From: a virus
Taxonomy: Duplodnaviria > Caudoviricetes
Virus record (IMG/VR): IMGVR_UViG_3300033120_001068
Span: 25,023-89,022 of that record
Length of the DNA: 64,000 nt
Direction: 5' to 3' (one strand)
In this document: positions 31,455-57,706 of the stretch, one piece after another
Layout of the letters: each line of letters begins with the position of its first letter
Numbering within the stretch: position 1 is the first letter of the stretch
Program-made: the position numbers and the translations under genes
Notes under the pieces: generated by a model
The model's database searches: none
Seen by the model: the letters and a program-made list of their open reading frames with translations, nothing else
What the model was told of the DNA's origin: nothing

Positions 31455-32219
31455 ATGCCTAAAACATTAATAAGTAGTGAAAGTGCTACACATCCAATCC
31501 CTGAAGGATATAAAGAAGGAAAACTTATGATTTCTGAACTCTTCATTGATACAATACAAGGGGAAGGAAGGACAATTGGATTCCCTTGTATCTTCATAAG
31601 ATTTACAGGATGTACTTTAAATTGTAGTTGGTGTGATACCACAGAAGTATGGAGAAAAGGACTTTACTACACTTTTGAAGATTTATTTACTATGCTTGAA
31701 ATAAGTGGAACAATTGGTAAGTTGAAAACTGGTCAACACTTAATTTTAACAGGAGGTAGTCCTTTAAAACAACAAAAAAGTATAGTAGAATTTTTGATGC
31801 AATTTATTTCTAAATATGGTTTTAAACCTTTTATAGAAGTAGAAAATGAGTGTGTTTTAATGCCTTCAAGACACTTGATTTCTTTGGTTGACCAATGGAA
31901 TAATTCTCCAAAATTAGCTAATTCAAACATGAAAGTTAAAGCAAGAATGAAACCTGATATAATCTTAGCAACTGCTTTACTTCCAAACTCATGGTTTAAG
32001 TTTGTTGTTTATTGTCAAGAAGACTGGAATGAAATACTTTCTGATTTTGTTGAAACCGGACTTGTAACCATGGATCAAATAATACTTATGCCTCTTGGAA
32101 TAAATCAAGAAGAGTTAAGTAAATCAAGAGAATTCGTTGTAAATTTATGTACTGAAAATTCAGTACTTTTTTCTGATAGGTTGCATATAACAATATGGGA
32201 CAAAAAAACTGGTGTATAA
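31455..32219 (+). CDS. queE: 7-carboxy-7-deazaguanine synthase (radical SAM)
   Basis: TIQGEG, IRFTGCTLNCSWCDT (CxxxCxxC), LTGGSP and SPKL. Confidence 0.9.
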   Translation: MPKTLISSESATHPIPEGYKEGKLMISELFIDTIQGEGRTIGFPCIFIRFTGCTLNCSWCDTTEVWRKGLYYTFEDLFTMLEISGTIGKLKTGQHLILTGGSPLKQQKSIVEFLMQFISKYGFKPFIEVENECVLMPSRHLISLVDQWNNSPKLANSNMKVKARMKPDIILATALLPNSWFKFVVYCQEDWNEILSDFVETGLVTMDQIILMPLGINQEELSKSREFVVNLCTENSVLFSDRLHITIWDKKTGV

Positions 32220-32449
32220 TGAAAAACTTAGAAGTAGAATTAAAAGAATTGGTATTAGATACTGCTAATGCAACCCTTATTATTTCAGTAAATAAAGAAG
32301 GGAAATGGTATGCAACCATTGGAGATAAAGGAGCAAGAGTGGAAGAAGAGGGTTTAAAACAACTTGTCCCTTCAATAATTTCTTATTTAAAAGAAAATAG
32401 AAAAGTTAAAGAACCTACAAAAAGATCACTTAAAAACTTTACATTGTAA
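32219..32449 (+). CDS. Hypothetical protein inside the que cluster
   Basis: Likely ATG at 32219, overlapping the queE stop. Confidence 0.5.
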   Translation: MKNLEVELKELVLDTANATLIISVNKEGKWYATIGDKGARVEEEGLKQLVPSIISYLKENRKVKEPTKRSLKNFTL

Positions 32450-32452
32450 CGT

Positions 32453-32902
32453 ATGTATGAATCAACTAAATTTTTTAAAGGGTACTCATGTGCTATCAGA
32501 CAATGGAGAGCAAGTCATTCTCATTGCCAATTGGTGCATGGATATTCTTTTTATTTTCAAATAACTTTTTCTCCTATAAATGGAAAGTTAGACGAAATGA
32601 ATTGGGTTCAGGATTTTGGTTCTTTTAAAAGAAATGGTCTTAAAGAATGGTTAGATGAAATGTTTGACCACACCACTTTAATTGAAAAAGATGACCCTTA
32701 CCTTGAATGGTTTCAATGGGCAGATTCTGAAAAGATTTTAAAGTTAGTTATACTTGACCAGATGGGTGCAGAATCAGTAGCTAAACTTGTTTTTGATAAG
32801 TTCAATGAAAGACTTAGTTTAATTGAGGGAGGAAGAGTTGAAGTTGTCAAAGTAGAATGTTTTGAAAATGAAAATAATTCAGGAATTTATAAAAAACAGT
32901 GA
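32453..32902 (+). CDS. queD: 6-carboxy-5,6,7,8-tetrahydropterin synthase
   Basis: HSHCQLVHGYSF, DFG, FDHTTL, AES and ENENNSGIY. Confidence 0.9.
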   Translation: MYESTKFFKGYSCAIRQWRASHSHCQLVHGYSFYFQITFSPINGKLDEMNWVQDFGSFKRNGLKEWLDEMFDHTTLIEKDDPYLEWFQWADSEKILKLVILDQMGAESVAKLVFDKFNERLSLIEGGRVEVVKVECFENENNSGIYKKQ

Positions 32903-33253
32903 ATGAAAAAAGAAGAACAAATAAGTAGACTTAATCAATTGGATAAAGATACAATTGAGTTGATAAAAACTAAATCTGAGGATTATGCAAAGGATATAGA
33001 TGTTCTTTCAAACTTCAAAATAGTTTCAAAACTGATTGAGTTAATTGGAGTTGATGTCACCAAACCAGAAGGGTATGCAATGTTAATGGTACTTTTAAAA
33101 ATAGTAAGAATTTGGAACTTAAAATCAGCAAATAAAATTCCAAACAATGAGTCACTTTTAGATTCTTATAAAGATCTAATAAATTATGCTAAATTATCAT
33201 TACTTAACGAAATAGAATCTAATAAAAATGTCACTACAGAAAACAAAAACTAA
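32903..33253 (+). CDS. Nucleotide-modification-associated domain protein (DUF1599/Nmad1-like)
   Basis: K..DY....NF...LKIVRI.NL...NESLLDSYKDLINYA. Confidence 0.7.
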   Translation: MKKEEQISRLNQLDKDTIELIKTKSEDYAKDIDVLSNFKIVSKLIELIGVDVTKPEGYAMLMVLLKIVRIWNLKSANKIPNNESLLDSYKDLINYAKLSLLNEIESNKNVTTENKN

Positions 33254-33899
33254 TCCTGAATTAGGGAAAAAAGTTGAAAAATACTTAAAAGAAAAAGGAG
33301 TCCAAACTCCCATGTCCAATTTTGAAATCTTGGATGAAGAAAAAAAAGAAATAATAGAAGACAGTTTTAGAAAGATAATGCAAGTTTTAGGACTTGATTT
33401 ATCAGATGATTCTTTAGAAGACAGTCCTAAAAGAGTTTCAAAAATGTATGTAGATGAAATATTTTGGGGATTAAATCCTTCAAACTTTCCTAAATGTACT
33501 GCAATTGACAACAAGATGAATGTAGATGAGATGGTCATAGAAAGAAACATAAATGTCCAAAGCAACTGCGAACACCATTTTGTTATAATAGATGGCACTT
33601 GTGATGTAGCATATATCCCAAAAAACAAAGTTTTAGGATTATCAAAAATGAATAGGATAGTTGAATATTTTTCAAAAAGGCCTCAAGTTCAAGAAAGACT
33701 TACAAGTCAAATTTTTCATACCTTATGTTTCATTTTGGAAACAGAAGACGTAGCAGTTAGAATAAAGGCTCAGCACTTTTGTGTTAAGTCAAGAGGAGTT
33801 GAGGATACTGGTTCAGACACAGTCACTTCAAAGTTGGGAGGTTCTTTTAAAAATGAGCCTGAATGTAGATCTGAATTTTTCTCACTTCTTAACAAATAA
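33228..33899 (+). CDS. folE: GTP cyclohydrolase I
   Basis: SPKRVSKMY, CEHH, GLSKMNR, RPQVQERLT and HFCVKSRG. Confidence 0.95.
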   Translation: MSLQKTKTNPELGKKVEKYLKEKGVQTPMSNFEILDEEKKEIIEDSFRKIMQVLGLDLSDDSLEDSPKRVSKMYVDEIFWGLNPSNFPKCTAIDNKMNVDEMVIERNINVQSNCEHHFVIIDGTCDVAYIPKNKVLGLSKMNRIVEYFSKRPQVQERLTSQIFHTLCFILETEDVAVRIKAQHFCVKSRGVEDTGSDTVTSKLGGSFKNEPECRSEFFSLLNK

Positions 33900-33901
33900 G
33901 A

Positions 33902-34321
33902 ATGCCAAAAGTAACTCATGTTAAAAGTTGCAATAAAACTATTTTTTTTATCAATTCAAAAGGAGAAGAAAAAGTTTTAGTTGAAAAAGGGAAAGAATAT
34001 TGGTGGTGGAAATTTAGAAATTTTCCAAGACAAGTTTCTTCAACAAAACCTAAACCAAGAGATGTAAGACATCCTAATAAATCTACTTGGGATCTTGATA
34101 TTCAAAAGTACCAAGAAGAAGTCAATGATTTAGAAGAATGTCTTGATTTAGAACTTATTGAGAACTTGATTTCTGAATTAGAAGAACAAGTTGAAACTAT
34201 GCAAGATTCTTTATCTAATATGCCTGAGCAATTACAAGAATCAAGTATTCTTAATGAAAGAATAGAAGAACTGCAAGAATTTATTTCCACTTTGGAAGGA
34301 ATTGATTTAGAAGAAAGATAA
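33902..34321 (+). CDS. Hypothetical protein with an acidic coiled-coil C-terminus
   Basis: Intact ORF; SLSNMPEQLQES motif. Confidence 0.55.
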   Translation: MPKVTHVKSCNKTIFFINSKGEEKVLVEKGKEYWWWKFRNFPRQVSSTKPKPRDVRHPNKSTWDLDIQKYQEEVNDLEECLDLELIENLISELEEQVETMQDSLSNMPEQLQESSILNERIEELQEFISTLEGIDLEER

Positions 34322-34328
34322 ATTAAAA

Positions 34329-34613
34329 ATGGAAACTACCGTTGACGAATACCAAAATAAAGTGACCTTAGTAAAGAAATATGTAAAAGGCCAAGAAGAT
34401 TTATATTTATTAGCCAAACTTACTGAGGAAGCAGGCGAGGTTGCAAAAGAAATAAGAAGGAAAGTAGAAGGAATAGATACTTGTAAAGATCTTACAAGTG
34501 AGTTGGGAGATTTACTTTGGTGTATCACTGCAATAGCAGAAAGAAATGACATTGCAATGAGCAAAGTTATTGAAGCTAACCTTGAAAAATTAAAACAAAG
34601 AGGCTTATTATGA
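34329..34613 (+). CDS. mazG: MazG-like nucleoside triphosphate pyrophosphohydrolase
   Basis: KLTEEAGEVAKEIR...ELGDLLW. Confidence 0.85.
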   Translation: METTVDEYQNKVTLVKKYVKGQEDLYLLAKLTEEAGEVAKEIRRKVEGIDTCKDLTSELGDLLWCITAIAERNDIAMSKVIEANLEKLKQRGLL

Positions 34614-35428
34614 AAATAGCTCATGAATCACCAACTTCTATTTTTAAAGAAGTTCAGAAACTTACAGACTATGACTATTGTTTAGTTCACCTTTTAGAAG
34701 AAGATTCAAATTATTTAGAAAATTTTCTGTCTTCAAAAAAAGAAGGAAGGGAAATAATTTTAGATAATTCAATTTTTGAATTAGGAGTAGCATTTGATTC
34801 CAAAAGTTTTTCTAAATGGGTTGAAAAATTAAGACCTGACTGGTATATTGTTCCAGATGTTTTAGAAAATTGTTATTCAACTGTCTTGAATTATCATAGT
34901 TTTATAAGAGAATATCCTGATTTGCCAGGCAAGAAAATAGGAGTTTTACAAGGGAAGACTTATGAACAACTTTTATATTGCTATGTTAATCTGGTTGATC
35001 TTGGAGTTGATAAGATAGCAATTTCTTTTGACTACTCTTATTATGTTGATTTATATCCCAATGAAAACAAGTTAGTTTCTTGGTGTGAAGGTAGAAAGAT
35101 GTTCATTGATAAAATAATAGAAGATGTAAGATTTGACTCCTCCATTCCAATACATTTATTAGGATGCTCACTACCTCAAGAATTTAATCATTATAGAAAT
35201 AATGAAATTATTGAAAGTATGGATTCTTCTAATCCAGTAGTTTGTGGTTTATATGGAATAGAATATAATGGTTTGCAAGGATTACAAGAAAAGCCTTCTA
35301 AAAAACTTTTTGAATTGATTAGAGAAAAAGTAAATGAGGATTCTCTAAGTAAAGTAATAAAAAACATATTGACTTTTAAAAAAATAGTAAATGGGAAAAC
35401 TAATATCAATCTCAGGAACTCATTGTAG
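34610..35428 (+). CDS. dpdA: TGT/DpdA-like guanine transglycosylase
   Basis: ILDNS, VPDV, GVLQG, IAISF, IHLLG and SMDSS mirror the TGT barrel motifs; located among que genes. Confidence 0.7.
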   Translation: MKIAHESPTSIFKEVQKLTDYDYCLVHLLEEDSNYLENFLSSKKEGREIILDNSIFELGVAFDSKSFSKWVEKLRPDWYIVPDVLENCYSTVLNYHSFIREYPDLPGKKIGVLQGKTYEQLLYCYVNLVDLGVDKIAISFDYSYYVDLYPNENKLVSWCEGRKMFIDKIIEDVRFDSSIPIHLLGCSLPQEFNHYRNNEIIESMDSSNPVVCGLYGIEYNGLQGLQEKPSKKLFELIREKVNEDSLSKVIKNILTFKKIVNGKTNINLRNSL

Positions 35429-35978
35429 TGGAAAAACTACTTTATTAAAAGAACTTGAAACTTCATATTCTGTAAATAGAAAAGATGAAGATTTTAAAGT
35501 TTTATTTGTTGACTCAGTAACAAGGAGTTTGAAGAAAAAAGGGTATCCAATCAATAATGAGGAAAGTTCTAATTATGATGGTACTCAAATTGCTTGTCTT
35601 AAACAAGATTTAAGAAATATTCAAACTGCCTTTTTACTTGATGGAACCTATATTTTTGATAGAAGTTTACTTGATACTTTTGTTTATACAACTTATCTGT
35701 TTAGGCAAAAGAAAGTTTCAACTGAGGCTTATGAAGAAATTAAGTCCAGGTGGGAAGGAAATAAAAATTCTTTTGATGTAATCTTTCTTTTAAACCATAC
35801 AGAAATCCCTTTTGATAATGATGGAGTCAGAAGTCCTAATTTACTTTTTAGAGAAGAAATTGCATTGATTTTTAAAGAAATTTTAGGAGAAAGCAACATA
35901 GTTCTTGAAATAGTTTCAGGAAGTAAAGAAATTAGATTATTAACAGTAATTAAAAAGATATGGAAAATAAATCAATAA
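35391..35978 (+). CDS. P-loop (deoxy)nucleotide monophosphate kinase-like protein
   Basis: ISGTHCSGKTT, FDRSLLD and DGVR. Confidence 0.75.
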   Translation: MGKLISISGTHCSGKTTLLKELETSYSVNRKDEDFKVLFVDSVTRSLKKKGYPINNEESSNYDGTQIACLKQDLRNIQTAFLLDGTYIFDRSLLDTFVYTTYLFRQKKVSTEAYEEIKSRWEGNKNSFDVIFLLNHTEIPFDNDGVRSPNLLFREEIALIFKEILGESNIVLEIVSGSKEIRLLTVIKKIWKINQ

Positions 35979-36907
35979 ATGACTTTGCATCTAAGTCACT
36001 TGGTAGTGAGAATAGTTATGCAATATACAGTGAGAAGTATGACCCTTCCTTACTTGTAAAAATGCCAAGATATTTGGCAAGGCAGGAAATAAAAGTTTCC
36101 AATTCTCCTTTTGGAGTTGATGTTTGGCATGGTTATGAATGTACTTTTTTATTGAATAATGGTTTACCAATTTCAGGAATTCTAAAATTTGTCTATCCTT
36201 CAAGTAGTTTTTTTATGGTTGAGTCAAAATCTATGAAACTTTACTTGAATACTTTTGATATGTGTAAATTAGGAGAAGAGGAAGTTGAAGCAGTAGAAAA
36301 TTATCTGCACCTTGTGGGGAGTCACTTAAGTGAATGTCTTGAAATTCTCCCTTCTTCTCTAATTTTAAGTTTCCATTCTGACTCTAATTTTATTTTGCCT
36401 AAACTTGATCTTAATTCTTTAATCAACTTAGAGTCTCTTGTTTCTAAAGATGATAAGTTTAATTATAGTGAACTTGTTGAAATAAATAATCACATTAAAA
36501 CTCTTGAGATTAAAGAAGTAGAAGAAAGAACAAAAAATTGGACTTTTTATAAAACTAACATTCTAAGATCAAGATGTAGACACACTAAACAAAAAGACAC
36601 AGGATATGGTTTCTTCTTTATAAAAACTTCTATTGATGTTACCATAGATCCATTATCTTTATTGAAGCAAGTATTAGCATTAAGAGAAACAAATGAGTTT
36701 CATGAATTTTGCAGTGAAAAGTTATATACTGCAATAAAAGAGACAGAAGGAGTTGAGGAATGTTGTGTGGTATTAATGTATGTAAGAAGGGGAGGCTTGG
36801 ATATTAATCCTATCAGATCTTCTTTACCTTTTAAAGACATCCCTCACCATTTACCTGAATATTTAAGTCTTGGTAAATTTTTATTTGAAAGAACTTTTAT
36901 TCAATAA
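35960..36907 (+). CDS. queF: NADPH-dependent preQ0 reductase, bimodular (type II)
   Basis: DVWHGYE, VESKSMKLYLN, LRSRC...QKD, EFHEFC and YVRRGGLDINPIRS. Confidence 0.85.
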   Translation: MENKSINDFASKSLGSENSYAIYSEKYDPSLLVKMPRYLARQEIKVSNSPFGVDVWHGYECTFLLNNGLPISGILKFVYPSSSFFMVESKSMKLYLNTFDMCKLGEEEVEAVENYLHLVGSHLSECLEILPSSLILSFHSDSNFILPKLDLNSLINLESLVSKDDKFNYSELVEINNHIKTLEIKEVEERTKNWTFYKTNILRSRCRHTKQKDTGYGFFFIKTSIDVTIDPLSLLKQVLALRETNEFHEFCSEKLYTAIKETEGVEECCVVLMYVRRGGLDINPIRSSLPFKDIPHHLPEYLSLGKFLFERTFIQ

Positions 36908-36914
36908 ACAATTA

Positions 36915-36988
36915 TTTTATTTAAAATGCTTTTATTTAAATAAACTTTCATTATATTTATGCTATCAACTCAAACAAAAACACAAACC
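36915..36988 (+). promoter_or_regulatory. Phage promoter repeat copy
   Basis: TTTTATTTAAAATGCTTTTATTTAAATAAACTTTCATTATATTTATGCTATCAACTCAAAC. Confidence 0.8.
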
Positions 36989-37411
36989 ATGGAATCACTT
37001 GAAATTAAGTCAGTTGTAGAAATGCAAATCATCATGGAAATGAGGCAGCATTTTACAGATGAAGACAGCATCAAAATCTTCAATTCTTTATGTCTAAGTC
37101 AAACTCATTTTCCAAACATATCTTTAGAAGAACTTTGGAAGAAAGAAAAATTGTTCTATTTAATTCACAAAGAATCTTCTATTCAATGCATAAGAATGGG
37201 GTTAAATATTTCAGGGTTATTTAGGGAAGACATCTTCCAGTCTTTTGAGAAAATTAAAAAAAGCATTTTATCTTCAAAAAATACTGAGCATTTAAAATCA
37301 TGCAAGGAACTTCTTGTTCTTTTCAATGATAAATTTAGTTCTCATAAAGCCATTTCTACTTTTAATCTTGAGTTGGATTTTTTATGGAATACAACTTACT
37401 ATAACCTATAA
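36989..37411 (+). CDS. Hypothetical protein inserted between queF and queC
   Basis: Likely ATG at 36989, just after the promoter repeat. Confidence 0.55.
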   Translation: MESLEIKSVVEMQIIMEMRQHFTDEDSIKIFNSLCLSQTHFPNISLEELWKKEKLFYLIHKESSIQCIRMGLNISGLFREDIFQSFEKIKKSILSSKNTEHLKSCKELLVLFNDKFSSHKAISTFNLELDFLWNTTYYNL

Positions 37412-37420
37412 ATCATAAAT

Positions 37421-38224
37421 ATGAAAAAAGCAATTCTTGCACTATCAGGAGGAATGGATTCAACCTGCCTTTTACTAAGATTACTTAGAGAGAATTTTGA
37501 AGTAACTTGTATTCTTTTTGACTATGGTCAAAAGCATAAAGTTGAATTGGAAAGGGCTCTTAGAAATATAAACCATTTGAAAAAAAATGAACTTCCTGTC
37601 TCTTATCATAAAGTAGATTTAAGTTTCATGTCTGACTTTGGTTCATCTTTGACTTCTTCTTCATGTAAAGTTCCAGAAGGGCATTATAGTGAAGATAACA
37701 TGAAAAGCACAGTTGTCCCTAACAGGAATGCTATTTTTTCTTCCATAATATATGGATATGCACTTTCTTTATCAAACTCATGTAATAATGAGGAAGTAGT
37801 AATCTCACTAGGTATTCATTCAGGAGACCATGCTATTTATCCTGATTGTAGACCAGAATTTAGAGATTCACTTGAAAAAGCATTTAAACTAGGAAATTGG
37901 GGAGGAGATAAAGTTTCATACTACACTCCATTTATTGATTTTGACAAAACAATGATTTTAAGGAGTGCTATGGACTCATGTGAGTATTTAGGCCTTTCAT
38001 TTGATTTTATCTTAGGAAATACTTTAACTTCCTATAATCCTGATTCTCTTGGTCGTTCATCTGGAAAATCTGGTTCTGATATTGAAAGAATTGAAGCATT
38101 TATGAACATTTCTAGAATAGACCCAATCCAATACCAAGAACCTTGGGAGGCAGTAAAGAAACATGCTCTTAAAATTTTAAATAAATTTAAAGATGAGGGA
38201 AATACCAATAAGTCAGGAAATTAG
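37421..38224 (+). CDS. queC: 7-cyano-7-deazaguanine synthase
   Basis: ALSGGMDS, YGQKH, VPNRN and YPDCR. Confidence 0.92.
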   Translation: MKKAILALSGGMDSTCLLLRLLRENFEVTCILFDYGQKHKVELERALRNINHLKKNELPVSYHKVDLSFMSDFGSSLTSSSCKVPEGHYSEDNMKSTVVPNRNAIFSSIIYGYALSLSNSCNNEEVVISLGIHSGDHAIYPDCRPEFRDSLEKAFKLGNWGGDKVSYYTPFIDFDKTMILRSAMDSCEYLGLSFDFILGNTLTSYNPDSLGRSSGKSGSDIERIEAFMNISRIDPIQYQEPWEAVKKHALKILNKFKDEGNTNKSGN

Positions 38225-54854: not shown

Positions 54855-55197
54855 TACAATGAAAAAGTATTTTAGTAGTATTTTAGTAGTATCTTTTTTG
54901 ATGCCTTTGTTTTCTTTTTCAGAGCCTCCTTCTGAAATTATTGAAAGAAAAATAGTTCCATTTGGTCAACAAGAAAATACTATCAGTTCAACAAGTGAGA
55001 AATTACAGGATATTAATATAATTTCTGAGGAATTGTCTTATAGGATTGAAAATGATGAAGGACAAAAGTTTAATCTTTGCTTTGCAGAAGATGGAGAAAT
55101 AAAGGCAGTTTTTAATATGACATTAGAAACTTTTATTTTGAGATATGACAGAATAGAAGACACTTATTACATAATAGTAAATAAAAAAACAAAATGA
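54819..55197 (+). CDS. Secreted/periplasmic hypothetical protein
   Basis: Likely start MKKYFSSILVVSFLMPLFSFS, which reads as a signal peptide. Confidence 0.45.
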
Positions 55198-56378
55198 AAA
55201 AGTATTTAGATTTATTGGAAACCATTTTAGAAAATGGAATCTTAAAAGAAGAAGCAAGAACAGGAATGCCTAACACCATTTCCATATTTGGGGAACAGTT
55301 GAGATTTGATTTATCAGAAGGGTTTCCTTTGTTAACCACCAAACCAATGTTTTTTAGAGGCATAGTGGTAGAGTTGTTATGGTTCATGAAAGGTGATACT
55401 AACATCAAGTTTCTTGTTGATAATAGATGCAATATTTGGAATGAGGATGCTTATAATTATTATCTCAAAAAGTGTAAGGAAAGTTATTTTATAATGGATC
55501 AATCCATTGAAGAAGGTCCAGATGGTTTTTATCCATTATGTTTCGATATGTTTATTGAAGAAATAAAAAATACTGAAGGTGTAGTTACTTGTTTAAAAGA
55601 TAAAAACTATACTTTTGGTGATTGTGGTGAACAGTATGGTAAGTTGTGGAGAAAATGGTCTAAGGGTAATCAATATGAATTTGAAGGAGAATTTACTCCA
55701 TCTGAAGAAGTAGATCAGTTAAAGGAACTTCTTGAAGGATTAGAAAAGAACCCTATGTCAAGAAGACATATAATTACTGCTTGGAATCCAGCAACTTTAG
55801 ATGATATGGCATTAAATGCTTGCCATGTCTTGGTACAGTTTAATTGTAGACCATTAACTTGGGAACAAAAACTCGAATGGGCTAAAAGAAATATTAATCC
55901 TGATTATTTTGAGAATCTCTATATCACCGAATTAGCAAGTAGTGATAGATGCCCAAAATATTATCTTGACTGCCAATTGTATCAAAGAAGTGCAGATGTT
56001 GTCTTAGGTGTCCCTTTCAATATTGCTTCTTATGCTTTATTAACAATGATAATTTCAAAAGTTGTTAATATGGTTCCAGGTGACTTTATACACACTTTTG
56101 GAGATGTTCATATTTATGAATCTCATATAGAGGCAGTTAAAGAACAAATACAAAGAAAGCCTATGGAACTTTCAAAATTGAACATAAACACAGAATTCTG
56201 GGCTACTGAAAGTGGAAGTTGTGGGGAAGGAAAATTGAGTGTTAAAAGATTTTTAGATGACTTGAAAGATTCAAACTTTATTAAATGTCTTATAGAACAA
56301 GACATCCAACTTGAAAGTTATGTAAGTCATCCTAAACTTGAAAACCCAACTGAATTATTTACAGGATTAAAAAAGTAA
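55194..56378 (+). CDS. thyA: Thymidylate synthase with insertions
   Basis: FPLLTTK, ELLWF, SRRHIITAWN, ALNACH, YQRSAD, PFNIASY and GDVHIY. Confidence 0.95.
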   Translation: MKKYLDLLETILENGILKEEARTGMPNTISIFGEQLRFDLSEGFPLLTTKPMFFRGIVVELLWFMKGDTNIKFLVDNRCNIWNEDAYNYYLKKCKESYFIMDQSIEEGPDGFYPLCFDMFIEEIKNTEGVVTCLKDKNYTFGDCGEQYGKLWRKWSKGNQYEFEGEFTPSEEVDQLKELLEGLEKNPMSRRHIITAWNPATLDDMALNACHVLVQFNCRPLTWEQKLEWAKRNINPDYFENLYITELASSDRCPKYYLDCQLYQRSADVVLGVPFNIASYALLTMIISKVVNMVPGDFIHTFGDVHIYESHIEAVKEQIQRKPMELSKLNINTEFWATESGSCGEGKLSVKRFLDDLKDSNFIKCLIEQDIQLESYVSHPKLENPTELFTGLKK

Positions 56379-57091: not shown

Positions 57092-57706
57092 ATGAAAGCA
57101 ATAATGGCAGTAAACAAAAAAGGATTTATAGGCCTTAATGGAAAACTCCCTTGGTCATGTAAAGAAGATTTAAAACATTTCAAAAAGTTAACTTCAACCT
57201 CTGAAATAAATGAAGTCCCAATCCTACTTGTAGGTCATAACACTGCACTTACTCTTCCACCTTTAAAAGGCAGGGAAGTAAAAGTGTATAGAAGAAATGA
57301 GATAATTGGTATGAAAAATATTGATTGGTGTATAGGAGGAAAAGCAACTTATGAGAAATTTTGTCACCTTTTTACTGAACTTCACATTTCTTATATCAAT
57401 GATTATACCATTGGAGATACCCTTCTTCCCGATTTAAAAACACTTCCCACAACTTGTAAGATTTTTAGATATGGTTTTGAGGCAGATGAGTCATGGGGAG
57501 GGACAGAAGAAGCTTCAATATTTGAAGAATCACAAAATGAAGTATTAAAGGAAGATAAAGTGTTAACTAACCTTGATGAAGCAAAGAGACTCTTGGAAAT
57601 TGAAAGACTAACCAATAATTCAAAAGAGTTATCAGTTACATTAACTAATCTTGAAACTTCAATTTTATGGAGAAAGGAGGATGTAAAGATAAAAGGCATG
57701 AGATAA
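57092..57706 (+). CDS. folA: Dihydrofolate reductase with a C-terminal helical hairpin extension
   Basis: IGLNGKLPW..KEDLKHFK, PLKGR, CIGG and GDTLLP, plus about 60 extra residues. Confidence 0.85.
   Translation: MKAIMAVNKKGFIGLNGKLPWSCKEDLKHFKKLTSTSEINEVPILLVGHNTALTLPPLKGREVKVYRRNEIIGMKNIDWCIGGKATYEKFCHLFTELHISYINDYTIGDTLLPDLKTLPTTCKIFRYGFEADESWGGTEEASIFEESQNEVLKEDKVLTNLDEAKRLLEIERLTNNSKELSVTLTNLETSILWRKEDVKIKGMR

Follow-up and report, generated by a model that had tools for sequence, protein, structure and literature searches.

We have analyzed a 64,000-nucleotide stretch of viral DNA (hereafter, the window) that covers positions 25023-89022 of a viral contig of 89 kb from IMG/VR (IMGVR_UViG_3300033120_001068; G+C ~29%) and carries the gene of a 272-aa transglycosylase flanked by genes for a MazG-type nucleoside triphosphate pyrophosphohydrolase (NTP-PPase) and a P-loop kinase. 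The transglycosylase is assigned by sequence homology to the DpdA3 subfamily, and the phage is uncultured and known solely as this contig. We propose that its 7-deazaguanine genome would be made by a pre-replicative route through the nucleotide pool, a proposal to which we give an even chance. For a transglycosylase whose substrate is finished DNA, there is no need of an enzyme converting dNTPs to dNMPs or of a deoxynucleoside or dNMP kinase, whereas a route through free nucleotides needs both.

In the proposed route, MazG would hydrolyze dGTP to dGMP and PPi, which would lower the canonical dGTP pool and supply the acceptor nucleotide. In the key step, DpdA3 would swap guanine for preQ1 on a free deoxynucleotide, most likely dGMP, by the double-displacement chemistry of tRNA-guanine transglycosylases (TGTs), with D205 as the putative nucleophile and D52 as the putative acid/base. 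The kinase, predicted to have the fold of deoxynucleoside and thymidylate kinases (dNKs and TMPKs), would make the diphosphate from the dPreQ1 monophosphate (dPreQ1-MP), a host NDP kinase would yield the triphosphate, and the alpha subunit of the phage DNA polymerase III (Pol III) would incorporate it in place of dGTP. DpdA3 would then be a dGMP:7-deazaguanine transglycosylase, the first enzyme of the TGT superfamily to act on a free mononucleotide, and the published post-replicative model would be wrong; we see the arguments for and against this assignment as evenly balanced. A route of this kind had been put forward in an earlier reading of the same DNA (hereafter, the original prediction), and the phage Pol III on which it relied is present in the window.

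The complete base substitutions known in phages (hydroxymethylcytosine in T4, hydroxymethyluracil in SPO1 and Z in S-2L) arise at the dNMP level. Crippen is said to have suggested a modified-dGTP route in 2019, before DpdA3 was known. Such a route was put forward for Campylobacter phages (PMC6884629), also before DpdA3 was found. The DpdA3 phages replace 100% of G, and DpdA1, DpdA2 and bDpdA reach 0.1-30%; in E. coli assays, no product was obtained from DpdA3 alone or with DpdL, and the ADG nucleoside was seen in CP220-infected cells, in their cytoplasm (PMC10516641). In our literature search, action of DpdA3 on nucleotides was neither demonstrated nor explicitly proposed in any paper found.

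The kinase gene is tied to DpdA3 as tightly as QueF

The DpdA3 family is large: the protein library has 1547 clusters of it at 50% identity, and IMG/VR has at least 543 loci. We have gathered 137 DpdA3 loci from IMG/VR, GenBank phages and metagenome contigs and marked their neighbors with profiles built from the window proteins and their relatives. Counts were made on 33 loci, dereplicated at 85% DpdA3 identity and extending at least 4.5 kb on both sides, with neighbors taken within 4.5 kb. The kinase was found near DpdA3 in 30 of the 33 loci, exactly as often as QueF (30/33), followed by FolE (27/33), DpdN (25/33) and an NTP-PPase of the MazG/PRA-PH type (19/33). The commonest order was FolE ... 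NTP-PPase ... DpdA3-(DpdN)-kinase-QueF, with an NTP-PPase of the PRA-PH-like type in loci resembling that of Flavobacterium phage immuto. Co-occurrence of these genes across phages, which the original prediction had named as a check, was therefore observed.

In remote lineages, both slots are filled by non-orthologous substitutes. DpdA3 and the kinase remain neighbors in Campylobacter phages CP220 and CC_R7 though most que genes are elsewhere, the order in CC_R7 being QueC-DpdA3-kinase-DNA polymerase. Directly upstream of DpdA3, CP220 encodes a protein in which an HD phosphohydrolase is joined to a kinase-like domain of the AAA_33 type, and CP220 (NC_027997.1, about 5.4 kb and 55.5 kb) and other Firehammerviruses carry two AAA_28 kinase paralogues, one of them adjoining DpdA3. 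The T4-like Aeromonas phage Ahp1 has a DpdA3 homologue (hhalign 98%) followed by a T4 gp1-type dNMP kinase (PF21448, E 1.7e-17) and a gene of DCD/dUTPase fold, and Chryseobacterium phage MA9V-3 has a DpdA3 homologue (hhalign 99%) whose immediate upstream neighbor is an AAA_18/AAA_33 kinase, a DCD-like gene also being close by. An unclassified P-loop ORF lies upstream of DpdA3 in Bacillus phage BSTP12, and one metagenome contig shows NUDIX, DpdA3 and AAA_28 genes joined by 4-nt overlaps. A small temperate-looking phage carries Vut_1 (a YhhQ-type transporter), MazG, dGTP_diPhyd_N (the Pfam dATP/dGTP diphosphohydrolase) and DpdA3, with no que genes and no kinase. Altogether, the NTP-hydrolase partners of DpdA3 belong to at least six families. 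The occurrence of unrelated families in both the kinase and the NTPase slots is the signature of a functional requirement rather than of inherited gene order.

As a control, we have inspected 17 DpdA1 loci (of the phage 9g type), a narrow set of about six lineages, in which FolE, QueD, QueE and QueC were present, whereas a kinase of this family, an NTP-PPase or a small P-loop ORF was found in none.

The closest relative of the window locus, L061, reads FolE-DUF3310-dUTPase-MazG-DpdA3-(CxxCxxCC protein)-AAA_28-QueF, with the dUTPase standing where the window has a 139-aa coiled-coil ORF. Its DpdA3 (P0002, L061:8001-9761) has 586 aa, including a 317-aa N-terminal extension of no known family. 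The 236-aa CxxCxxCC protein that separates its DpdA3 and kinase genes, in a slot that is empty in the window, has a weak match to PF03692 and is possibly DpdM-like. In DpdA3 phages with few or no que genes (L165:3671-5801 and L164:4343-5068), Vut_1, of the YhhQ-type preQ0/preQ1 transporter family, adjoins DpdA3, which suggests that the base is imported rather than made.

The 272-aa protein is a predicted minimal TGT barrel with putative catalytic residues of the DpdA type

A tblastn search with the 272-aa protein retrieved the DpdA of phage immuto (53% identity over 97% of the length, E 4e-79) and gp056 of Campylobacter phage CP220 (38% identity, E 4e-41) together with CP220 relatives; phiST was not recovered at E <= 1e-3. 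The DpdA3 subfamily was founded on the immuto and CP220 proteins (PMC10516641), and these matches assign the window protein to it. E. coli TGT, tried as a seed for gathering phage DpdAs, was discarded since it recovered true tgt genes only.

The AlphaFold2 (AF2) model, built on 58 homologues, had a predicted local distance difference test (pLDDT) score of 95.1, and its Foldseek search retrieved TGT and DpdA structures with E of about 1e-7. Comparison by VIA with ArcTGT, DpdA (PDB 7ui4) and Zymomonas mobilis TGT gave Z of 18.0-18.2 over 235-237 residues, with a root mean square deviation of 3.1-3.4 Å and 11-13% identity. According to the model, DpdA3 would be a minimal TGT (beta/alpha)8 barrel with nothing added. 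The compact TGT-like enzyme described in the original prediction was thus recovered from structure while being invisible to Pfam: neither the protein nor the complete 89-kb record matched PF01702 (TGT), even with the limit set at E <= 10. Comparisons by hhalign with single sequences, tried for a residue-level equivalence of DpdA3 to TGT, produced partial, low-probability alignments only.

The same reading had noted the lack of a Zn site and of a PUA domain, and this also proved correct: the 58-sequence alignment showed no invariant Cys and no CxCxxC motif, and the protein stops after the barrel. The absence of these elements is weak evidence for a nucleotide substrate, because the DNA-acting DpdA1 proteins of phages are short too.

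Within the alignment, D52, S54, E57, H182, L184, G185, D205 and S207 were invariant, Q114 and G115 near-invariant or invariant, and D83 at least 90% conserved; R47, R162 and K228 are conserved too. The motifs are LDNSxFEL (D52), Q114-G115, H182-x-L184-G185 and D205-T-S207. D52 aligns with the LDSGAF acid/base motif (LDxxxF) of phage 9g DpdA (gp03), and the spacing of D52/F56/D83/L184/D205 is that of the D95/F99/D130/L236/D256 active site of Salmonella DpdA (PMC10164549). With the putative catalytic residues matched by motif and spacing, the base-exchange chemistry of DpdA3 is very probably intact.

Natural fusions of DpdA3 (P0152 and P0153, 566-568 aa; P0060 and P0063, 447 aa; P0045, 419 aa) join it to QueF, to the DpdN formyltransferase and to a GNAT acetyltransferase-like C-terminal domain. 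The latter was judged by eye and has no Pfam match; it could indicate an acetylated preQ1 derivative, so far undescribed.

The linked kinase and MazG are predicted to act on small molecules

The kinase matched AAA_28 with 66.8 bits and Pfam dNK with 22.5 bits (E 1e-4), under the 27-bit cut-off of the latter, and its PHROG family is labeled "thymidylate kinase" (E 8e-26). Its AF2 model (pLDDT 90) gave deoxyadenosine, deoxycytidine and deoxyguanosine kinases (dAK, dCK and dGK; query-based TM-score, TMq, up to 0.73) and TMPKs as best Foldseek matches, with E from 2e-9 to 4e-7. In the family alignment, G9, G14, K15, T17, T44, R45, R91, D95, Y99, D144, R147, S148 and R182 were invariant and D90 at least 90% conserved, so that the P-loop, the TR pair, the DR motif and a LID-like DDGxRS are kept. 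An ERS motif is typical of dNKs and a DR motif of TMPKs. The modeled fold indicates a small-molecule deoxynucleoside/deoxynucleotide kinase, not a polynucleotide kinase or a DNA-binding ATPase. The hhalign comparison with E. coli Tmk was weak (E 0.007, probability 5.5%). In the window, the genes of thymidylate synthase (ThyA) and dihydrofolate reductase (DHFR) are 20 kb from the kinase, which therefore lies outside any thymidylate module.

The ThyA gene (55194-56378) encodes 394 aa, of which residues 2-383 match a Pfam model of 266 positions, a span that implies an insertion of roughly 120 residues. The DHFR-like gene (57092-57706) is matched over its first 70 residues only. Among the proteins of the DpdA3-linked kinase family, P0155 (410 aa) is fused to a NADAR domain (PF08719).

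In MazG, both metal-binding motifs, EExxE (EEAGE) and ExxD (ELGD), are visible, and its PDB relatives are YpjD and MazG-like NTP-PPases. By sequence, it is an intact member of the all-alpha NTP pyrophosphohydrolases. MazG and the kinase of this family occur in one copy each in the genome.

Organization of the gene cluster

Nearly all window genes are on the + strand. As judged from the encoded protein families, the cluster carries the full preQ1 pathway (QueE, QueD, FolE, QueF and QueC) within 31455-38224 (Table 1).

Table 1. Predicted features of the cluster and its surroundings (window coordinates)
Feature	Position	Strand	Supporting matches and remarks
DNA polymerase III alpha, 1150 aa	25497..28949	+	Pfam DNA_pol3_alpha E 1e-58, finger E 5e-46, PHP E 1e-11; domains PHP, NTPase, finger, HhH
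Helicase	between 25.5 and 45 kb		
QueE-like radical SAM enzyme (7-carboxy-7-deazaguanine synthase)	31455..32219	+	Fer4_12 and Radical_SAM matches; homologous to QueE ORFs of related loci
QueD (6-carboxytetrahydropterin synthase)	32453..32902	+	PTPS E 6e-16; PHROG QueD-like E 1e-34
Nmad1/DUF1599-like small helical protein	32903..33253	+	DUF1599 E 7e-5, 23.5 bits (cut-off, 25 bits)
FolE (GTP cyclohydrolase I)	33228..33899	+	PF01227 E 9e-59
139-aa acidic coiled-coil ORF	33902..34321	+	no Pfam or PHROG family
MazG-type all-alpha NTP pyrophosphohydrolase, 94 aa	34329..34613	+	PF03819 E 5e-13, 49.6 bits (cut-off, 22 bits)
DpdA3-subfamily transglycosylase, 272 aa	34610..35428	+	homology to immuto/CP220 DpdA; PHROG 19058 E 2.5e-45; AF2 fold
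P-loop kinase, 195 aa	35391..35978	+	AAA_28 E 3e-18; deoxynucleoside/thymidylate-kinase fold
Bimodular QueF (preQ0 -> preQ1 reductase)	35960..36907	+	QueF_N E 6e-22; QueF E 7e-8
150-aa ORF inside cluster	36959..37411	+	no Pfam or PHROG match
QueC (preQ0 synthase)	37421..38224	+	PF06508 E 2e-40
Mre11/Rad50-like genes	beyond QueC, within the 25.5-45 kb region		

The transglycosylase gene overlaps both of its neighbors, as originally reported: the MazG stop and the DpdA3 start share an ATGA (4-nt overlap) with an AAAGAGG box upstream, and DpdA3 and the kinase overlap by 38 nt. A further overlap of 19 nt joins the kinase to QueF. A promoter scan gave results at chance level (50 found vs 49.7 expected), and a search for near-identical phage records found none.

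The Nmad1-like gene that had been described as a flank of the transglycosylase is present, with a DUF1599 match below cut-off, and it lies four genes from DpdA3 rather than next to it. The interval concerned (32903-35978) also contains the 139-aa ORF and FolE, the latter unmentioned in the original prediction. Atlas neighbors of the Nmad1-like protein include viral clusters of DUF1599 and DUF6378, with DUF1599 in 14-18% of members, and DUF3310 proteins occupy a comparable position in relatives. DUF3310 or DUF1599-like proteins also precede or follow FolE in the window and in L061. At L036:6783-7061 and in about two dozen loci of the "type B" order described in the Discussion, a DUF3310 protein stands between DpdN and QueF, i.e. 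at the usual position of the kinase. The idea that Nmad1/DUF3310 proteins are hidden MazG-like NTPases, which would have rescued the type B loci, was rejected after a negative hhalign comparison with the NTP-PPase alignment and the absence of Pfam cross-matches at E <= 5. The 139-aa ORF was likewise considered as a dUTPase, such as that of L061, and rejected, with no family match and the sequence of an acidic coiled coil.

Examination of the whole genome revealed neither a homologue of the formyltransferase DpdN nor a DpdM-like gene, and preQ1 itself is accordingly predicted as the final base. Upstream of the window, in the lysis/structural region of the contig, a 473-aa protein (L142, G000:C1:8661-10082) has both DUF6734 (E 4e-47) and a methyltransferase domain of class I. 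The cultured Bacteroides phage BS162P1 (OP172706.1), which was absent from the DpdA3 search matches, has a FolE 58% identical to that of the window; the two phages are possibly related at a distance, which would hint at the phylum of the host.

Comparison with known systems

The window DpdA3 is orthologous to those of immuto and CP220 (Cui/Hutinet et al., Nucleic Acids Research 2023, PMC10516641), and the same preQ pathway genes accompany it. The immuto locus shares the DpdA3-(DpdN)-kinase-QueF order, and its linked kinase is of the same AAA_28 family. The window differs from the published DpdA3 phages in having neither DpdN nor a DpdM-like gene, and its predicted end product is plain dPreQ1, for which we found no report as the end product of a DpdA3 phage. 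The NTPase also differs (MazG in the window, PRA-PH-like in immuto and an HD protein in CP220), as does the replicase, which is Pol III alpha in the window, PolA in immuto and a T4-type polymerase in others. The published model for DpdA3 is post-replicative and leaves the linked kinase unmentioned (PMC10516641).

Bacterial DpdA (PDB 7UI4) has the same TIM barrel as the predicted window DpdA3 (Z 18.0, 235 of 413 residues aligned, about 13% identity). With 272 aa vs 413 aa, the window protein would by length be without most of the Ins8 insertion, which makes up 30% of DpdA (PMC10164549). The bacterial Dpd system has DpdB, whereas the window has none.

The layout of the triad resembles that of two systems in which the base is changed at the nucleotide level. 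The Z-cluster of S-2L (DatZ, MazZ and PurZ) likewise combines an NTP pyrophosphohydrolase, a base-changing enzyme and a kinase, and in Z-genome phages MazZ supplies dGMP to PurZ (PMC8342488). The hydroxymethylcytosine pathway of T4 (gp56 dCTPase, gp42 dCMP hydroxymethylase and gp1 dNMP kinase) shows the same layout. The central enzyme of the window is a predicted TGT barrel, unrelated to the PurA-like or ThyA-like enzymes, for which action on a dNMP is predicted. The window MazG is not detectably a MazZ and the window kinase is not gp1-like; among other DpdA3 loci, one has dGTP_diPhyd_N directly upstream and another has a gp1-type DNMK directly downstream.

Discussion

Several observations weigh against the nucleotide-pool route. 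The authors who defined DpdA3 concluded that insertion is post-replicative (PMC10516641), and all characterized members of the TGT/DpdA superfamily act on a polynucleotide (PMC10164549, PMC10516641). The putative catalytic Asp triad and base-stacking residues, at their DpdA-like spacing, would fit either substrate. Net charge and isoelectric point (pI), which we tried as a sign of no DNA binding and rejected, do not separate DpdA3 (family median -8, pI 5.5) from the DNA-acting 9g DpdA (also -8), E. coli TGT having -6. Most of the counted loci are close relatives (DpdA3 47-55% identical) with a conserved gene order, so the kinase and NTPase counts reflect in part common descent and not independent selection. 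The type B loci (two among the 33 that were counted, about two dozen among all 137) read DpdA3-DpdN-DUF3310-QueF-QueC with no kinase or NTPase within 12-14 kb; as their contigs are 18 kb or shorter, these phages may carry either gene elsewhere. The P0143 and P0136 contigs show no kinase near DpdA3, and P0127 has NTPases but no kinase. No DpdA3-kinase fusion was found among 153 proteins or in searches, of limited sensitivity, for longer matches to the DpdA3 and kinase profiles; the fusions that did turn up were DpdA3-QueF, DpdA3-DpdN, DpdA3 with a GNAT-like tail and kinase-NADAR. Finally, MazG showed no specific likeness to MazZ or dGTP_diPhyd_N, with no match to PF18909 and with PDB matches (E <= 1) that include no MazZ chain. 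The parallel with the dZ pathway drawn in the original prediction holds for the layout of dNTPase, modifier and kinase, with no detectable MazZ-specific similarity of MazG. The nucleotide-level hypothesis as a whole is partly supported: the linkage and the kinase fold speak for it, the missing MazZ likeness and those DpdA3 loci that are without kinase and/or NTPase against it.

According to the published model, DpdA3 would be a very efficient, sequence-unspecific DNA transglycosylase that inserts preQ1 into newly replicated DNA, and the neighboring enzymes would come from general pool genes that happen to stand with the que genes in one operon, early or middle, MazG serving house-cleaning or pool rebalancing and the kinase, of thymidylate or dNMP type, the bulk dNTP supply. 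We consider this unlikely, although a serious contender. It agrees with the RNA or DNA substrates of every characterized TGT/DpdA enzyme (PMC10164549, PMC10516641), with the putative DpdA-type catalytic residues and predicted fold retained by DpdA3, with the DpdA3 loci that have no kinase and/or NTPase nearby, and with the general use that phages commonly make of MazG and Tmk-like genes, to which the PHROG name of the kinase family conforms. What it leaves unexplained is a kinase as tightly linked to DpdA3 as QueF, a Campylobacter-phage pair kept together at a distance from other nucleotide genes, non-homologous kinases and NTPases in the same slots, and the absence of both partners from the DpdA1 clusters. 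The distance of ThyA and DHFR from the kinase speaks against a thymidylate module. In an E. coli assay in which DpdA1 and DpdA2 are active, no modification of DNA was obtained with DpdA3 (PMC10516641). Replacement of 100% of G would be without precedent for post-replicative base exchange, DpdA1 reaching about 30% at most (PMC10516641).

The exchange could instead take place on the nucleoside, with DpdA3 acting on deoxyguanosine in the manner of a nucleoside 2'-deoxyribosyltransferase, the linked enzyme serving as a deoxynucleoside kinase that yields dPreQ1-MP, and host kinases finishing the synthesis. This appears improbable to us. The top structural matches of the kinase (dAK, dCK and dGK) and its weak Pfam dNK match point that way, as do the ADG nucleoside of CP220-infected cytoplasm (PMC10516641) and the two kinase paralogues of the Firehammerviruses, which could serve two successive steps. 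However, thymidylate kinases score nearly as well as dNKs in the fold search, the kinase has the DR motif of TMPK and a weak hhalign match to E. coli Tmk, the Ahp1 slot holds a T4 gp1-type dNMP kinase, and the recurrent NTP pyrophosphohydrolases yield a dNMP, not a nucleoside. That same Ahp1 kinase and those same hydrolases, the latter left unexplained, also count against the idea that the P-loop protein is an ATPase cofactor of DpdA3, DpdB-like in function, rather than a kinase of free nucleotides. Bacterial DpdA does need the ATPase DpdB in order to place preQ0 in DNA (PMC10164549), and a need for a cofactor would explain why DpdA3 alone is inactive in E. coli; DpdB is, however, ParB-like (PMC10164549), whereas the window protein has a predicted dNK/TMPK fold with substrate-site-like motifs and no extra domain. 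We regard a DpdB-like role as very improbable.

The role of DpdA3 has been assigned post-replicatively in the literature by analogy, and its conserved kinase and NTP-hydrolase partners make the question testable by reconstitution with three enzymes. The window offers a minimal, tailoring-free system (MazG, DpdA3, kinase and QueF) in a Pol III-type phage, which is convenient for such a reconstitution. If the nucleotide-pool route is wrong, the tight linkage between a small-molecule kinase and a DNA transglycosylase will still want an explanation. If it is right, the accepted mechanism would change and TGT chemistry would be extended to mononucleotides. The cluster would then provide enzymes for producing 7-deazaguanine dNTPs and a compact cassette with which DNA fully substituted with deazaguanine could be made in vivo, as has been achieved for Z-DNA with DatZ, MazZ and PurZ, and phages would have a third general route to fully substituted DNA, after the ThyA-like dNMP hydroxymethylases and PurZ.

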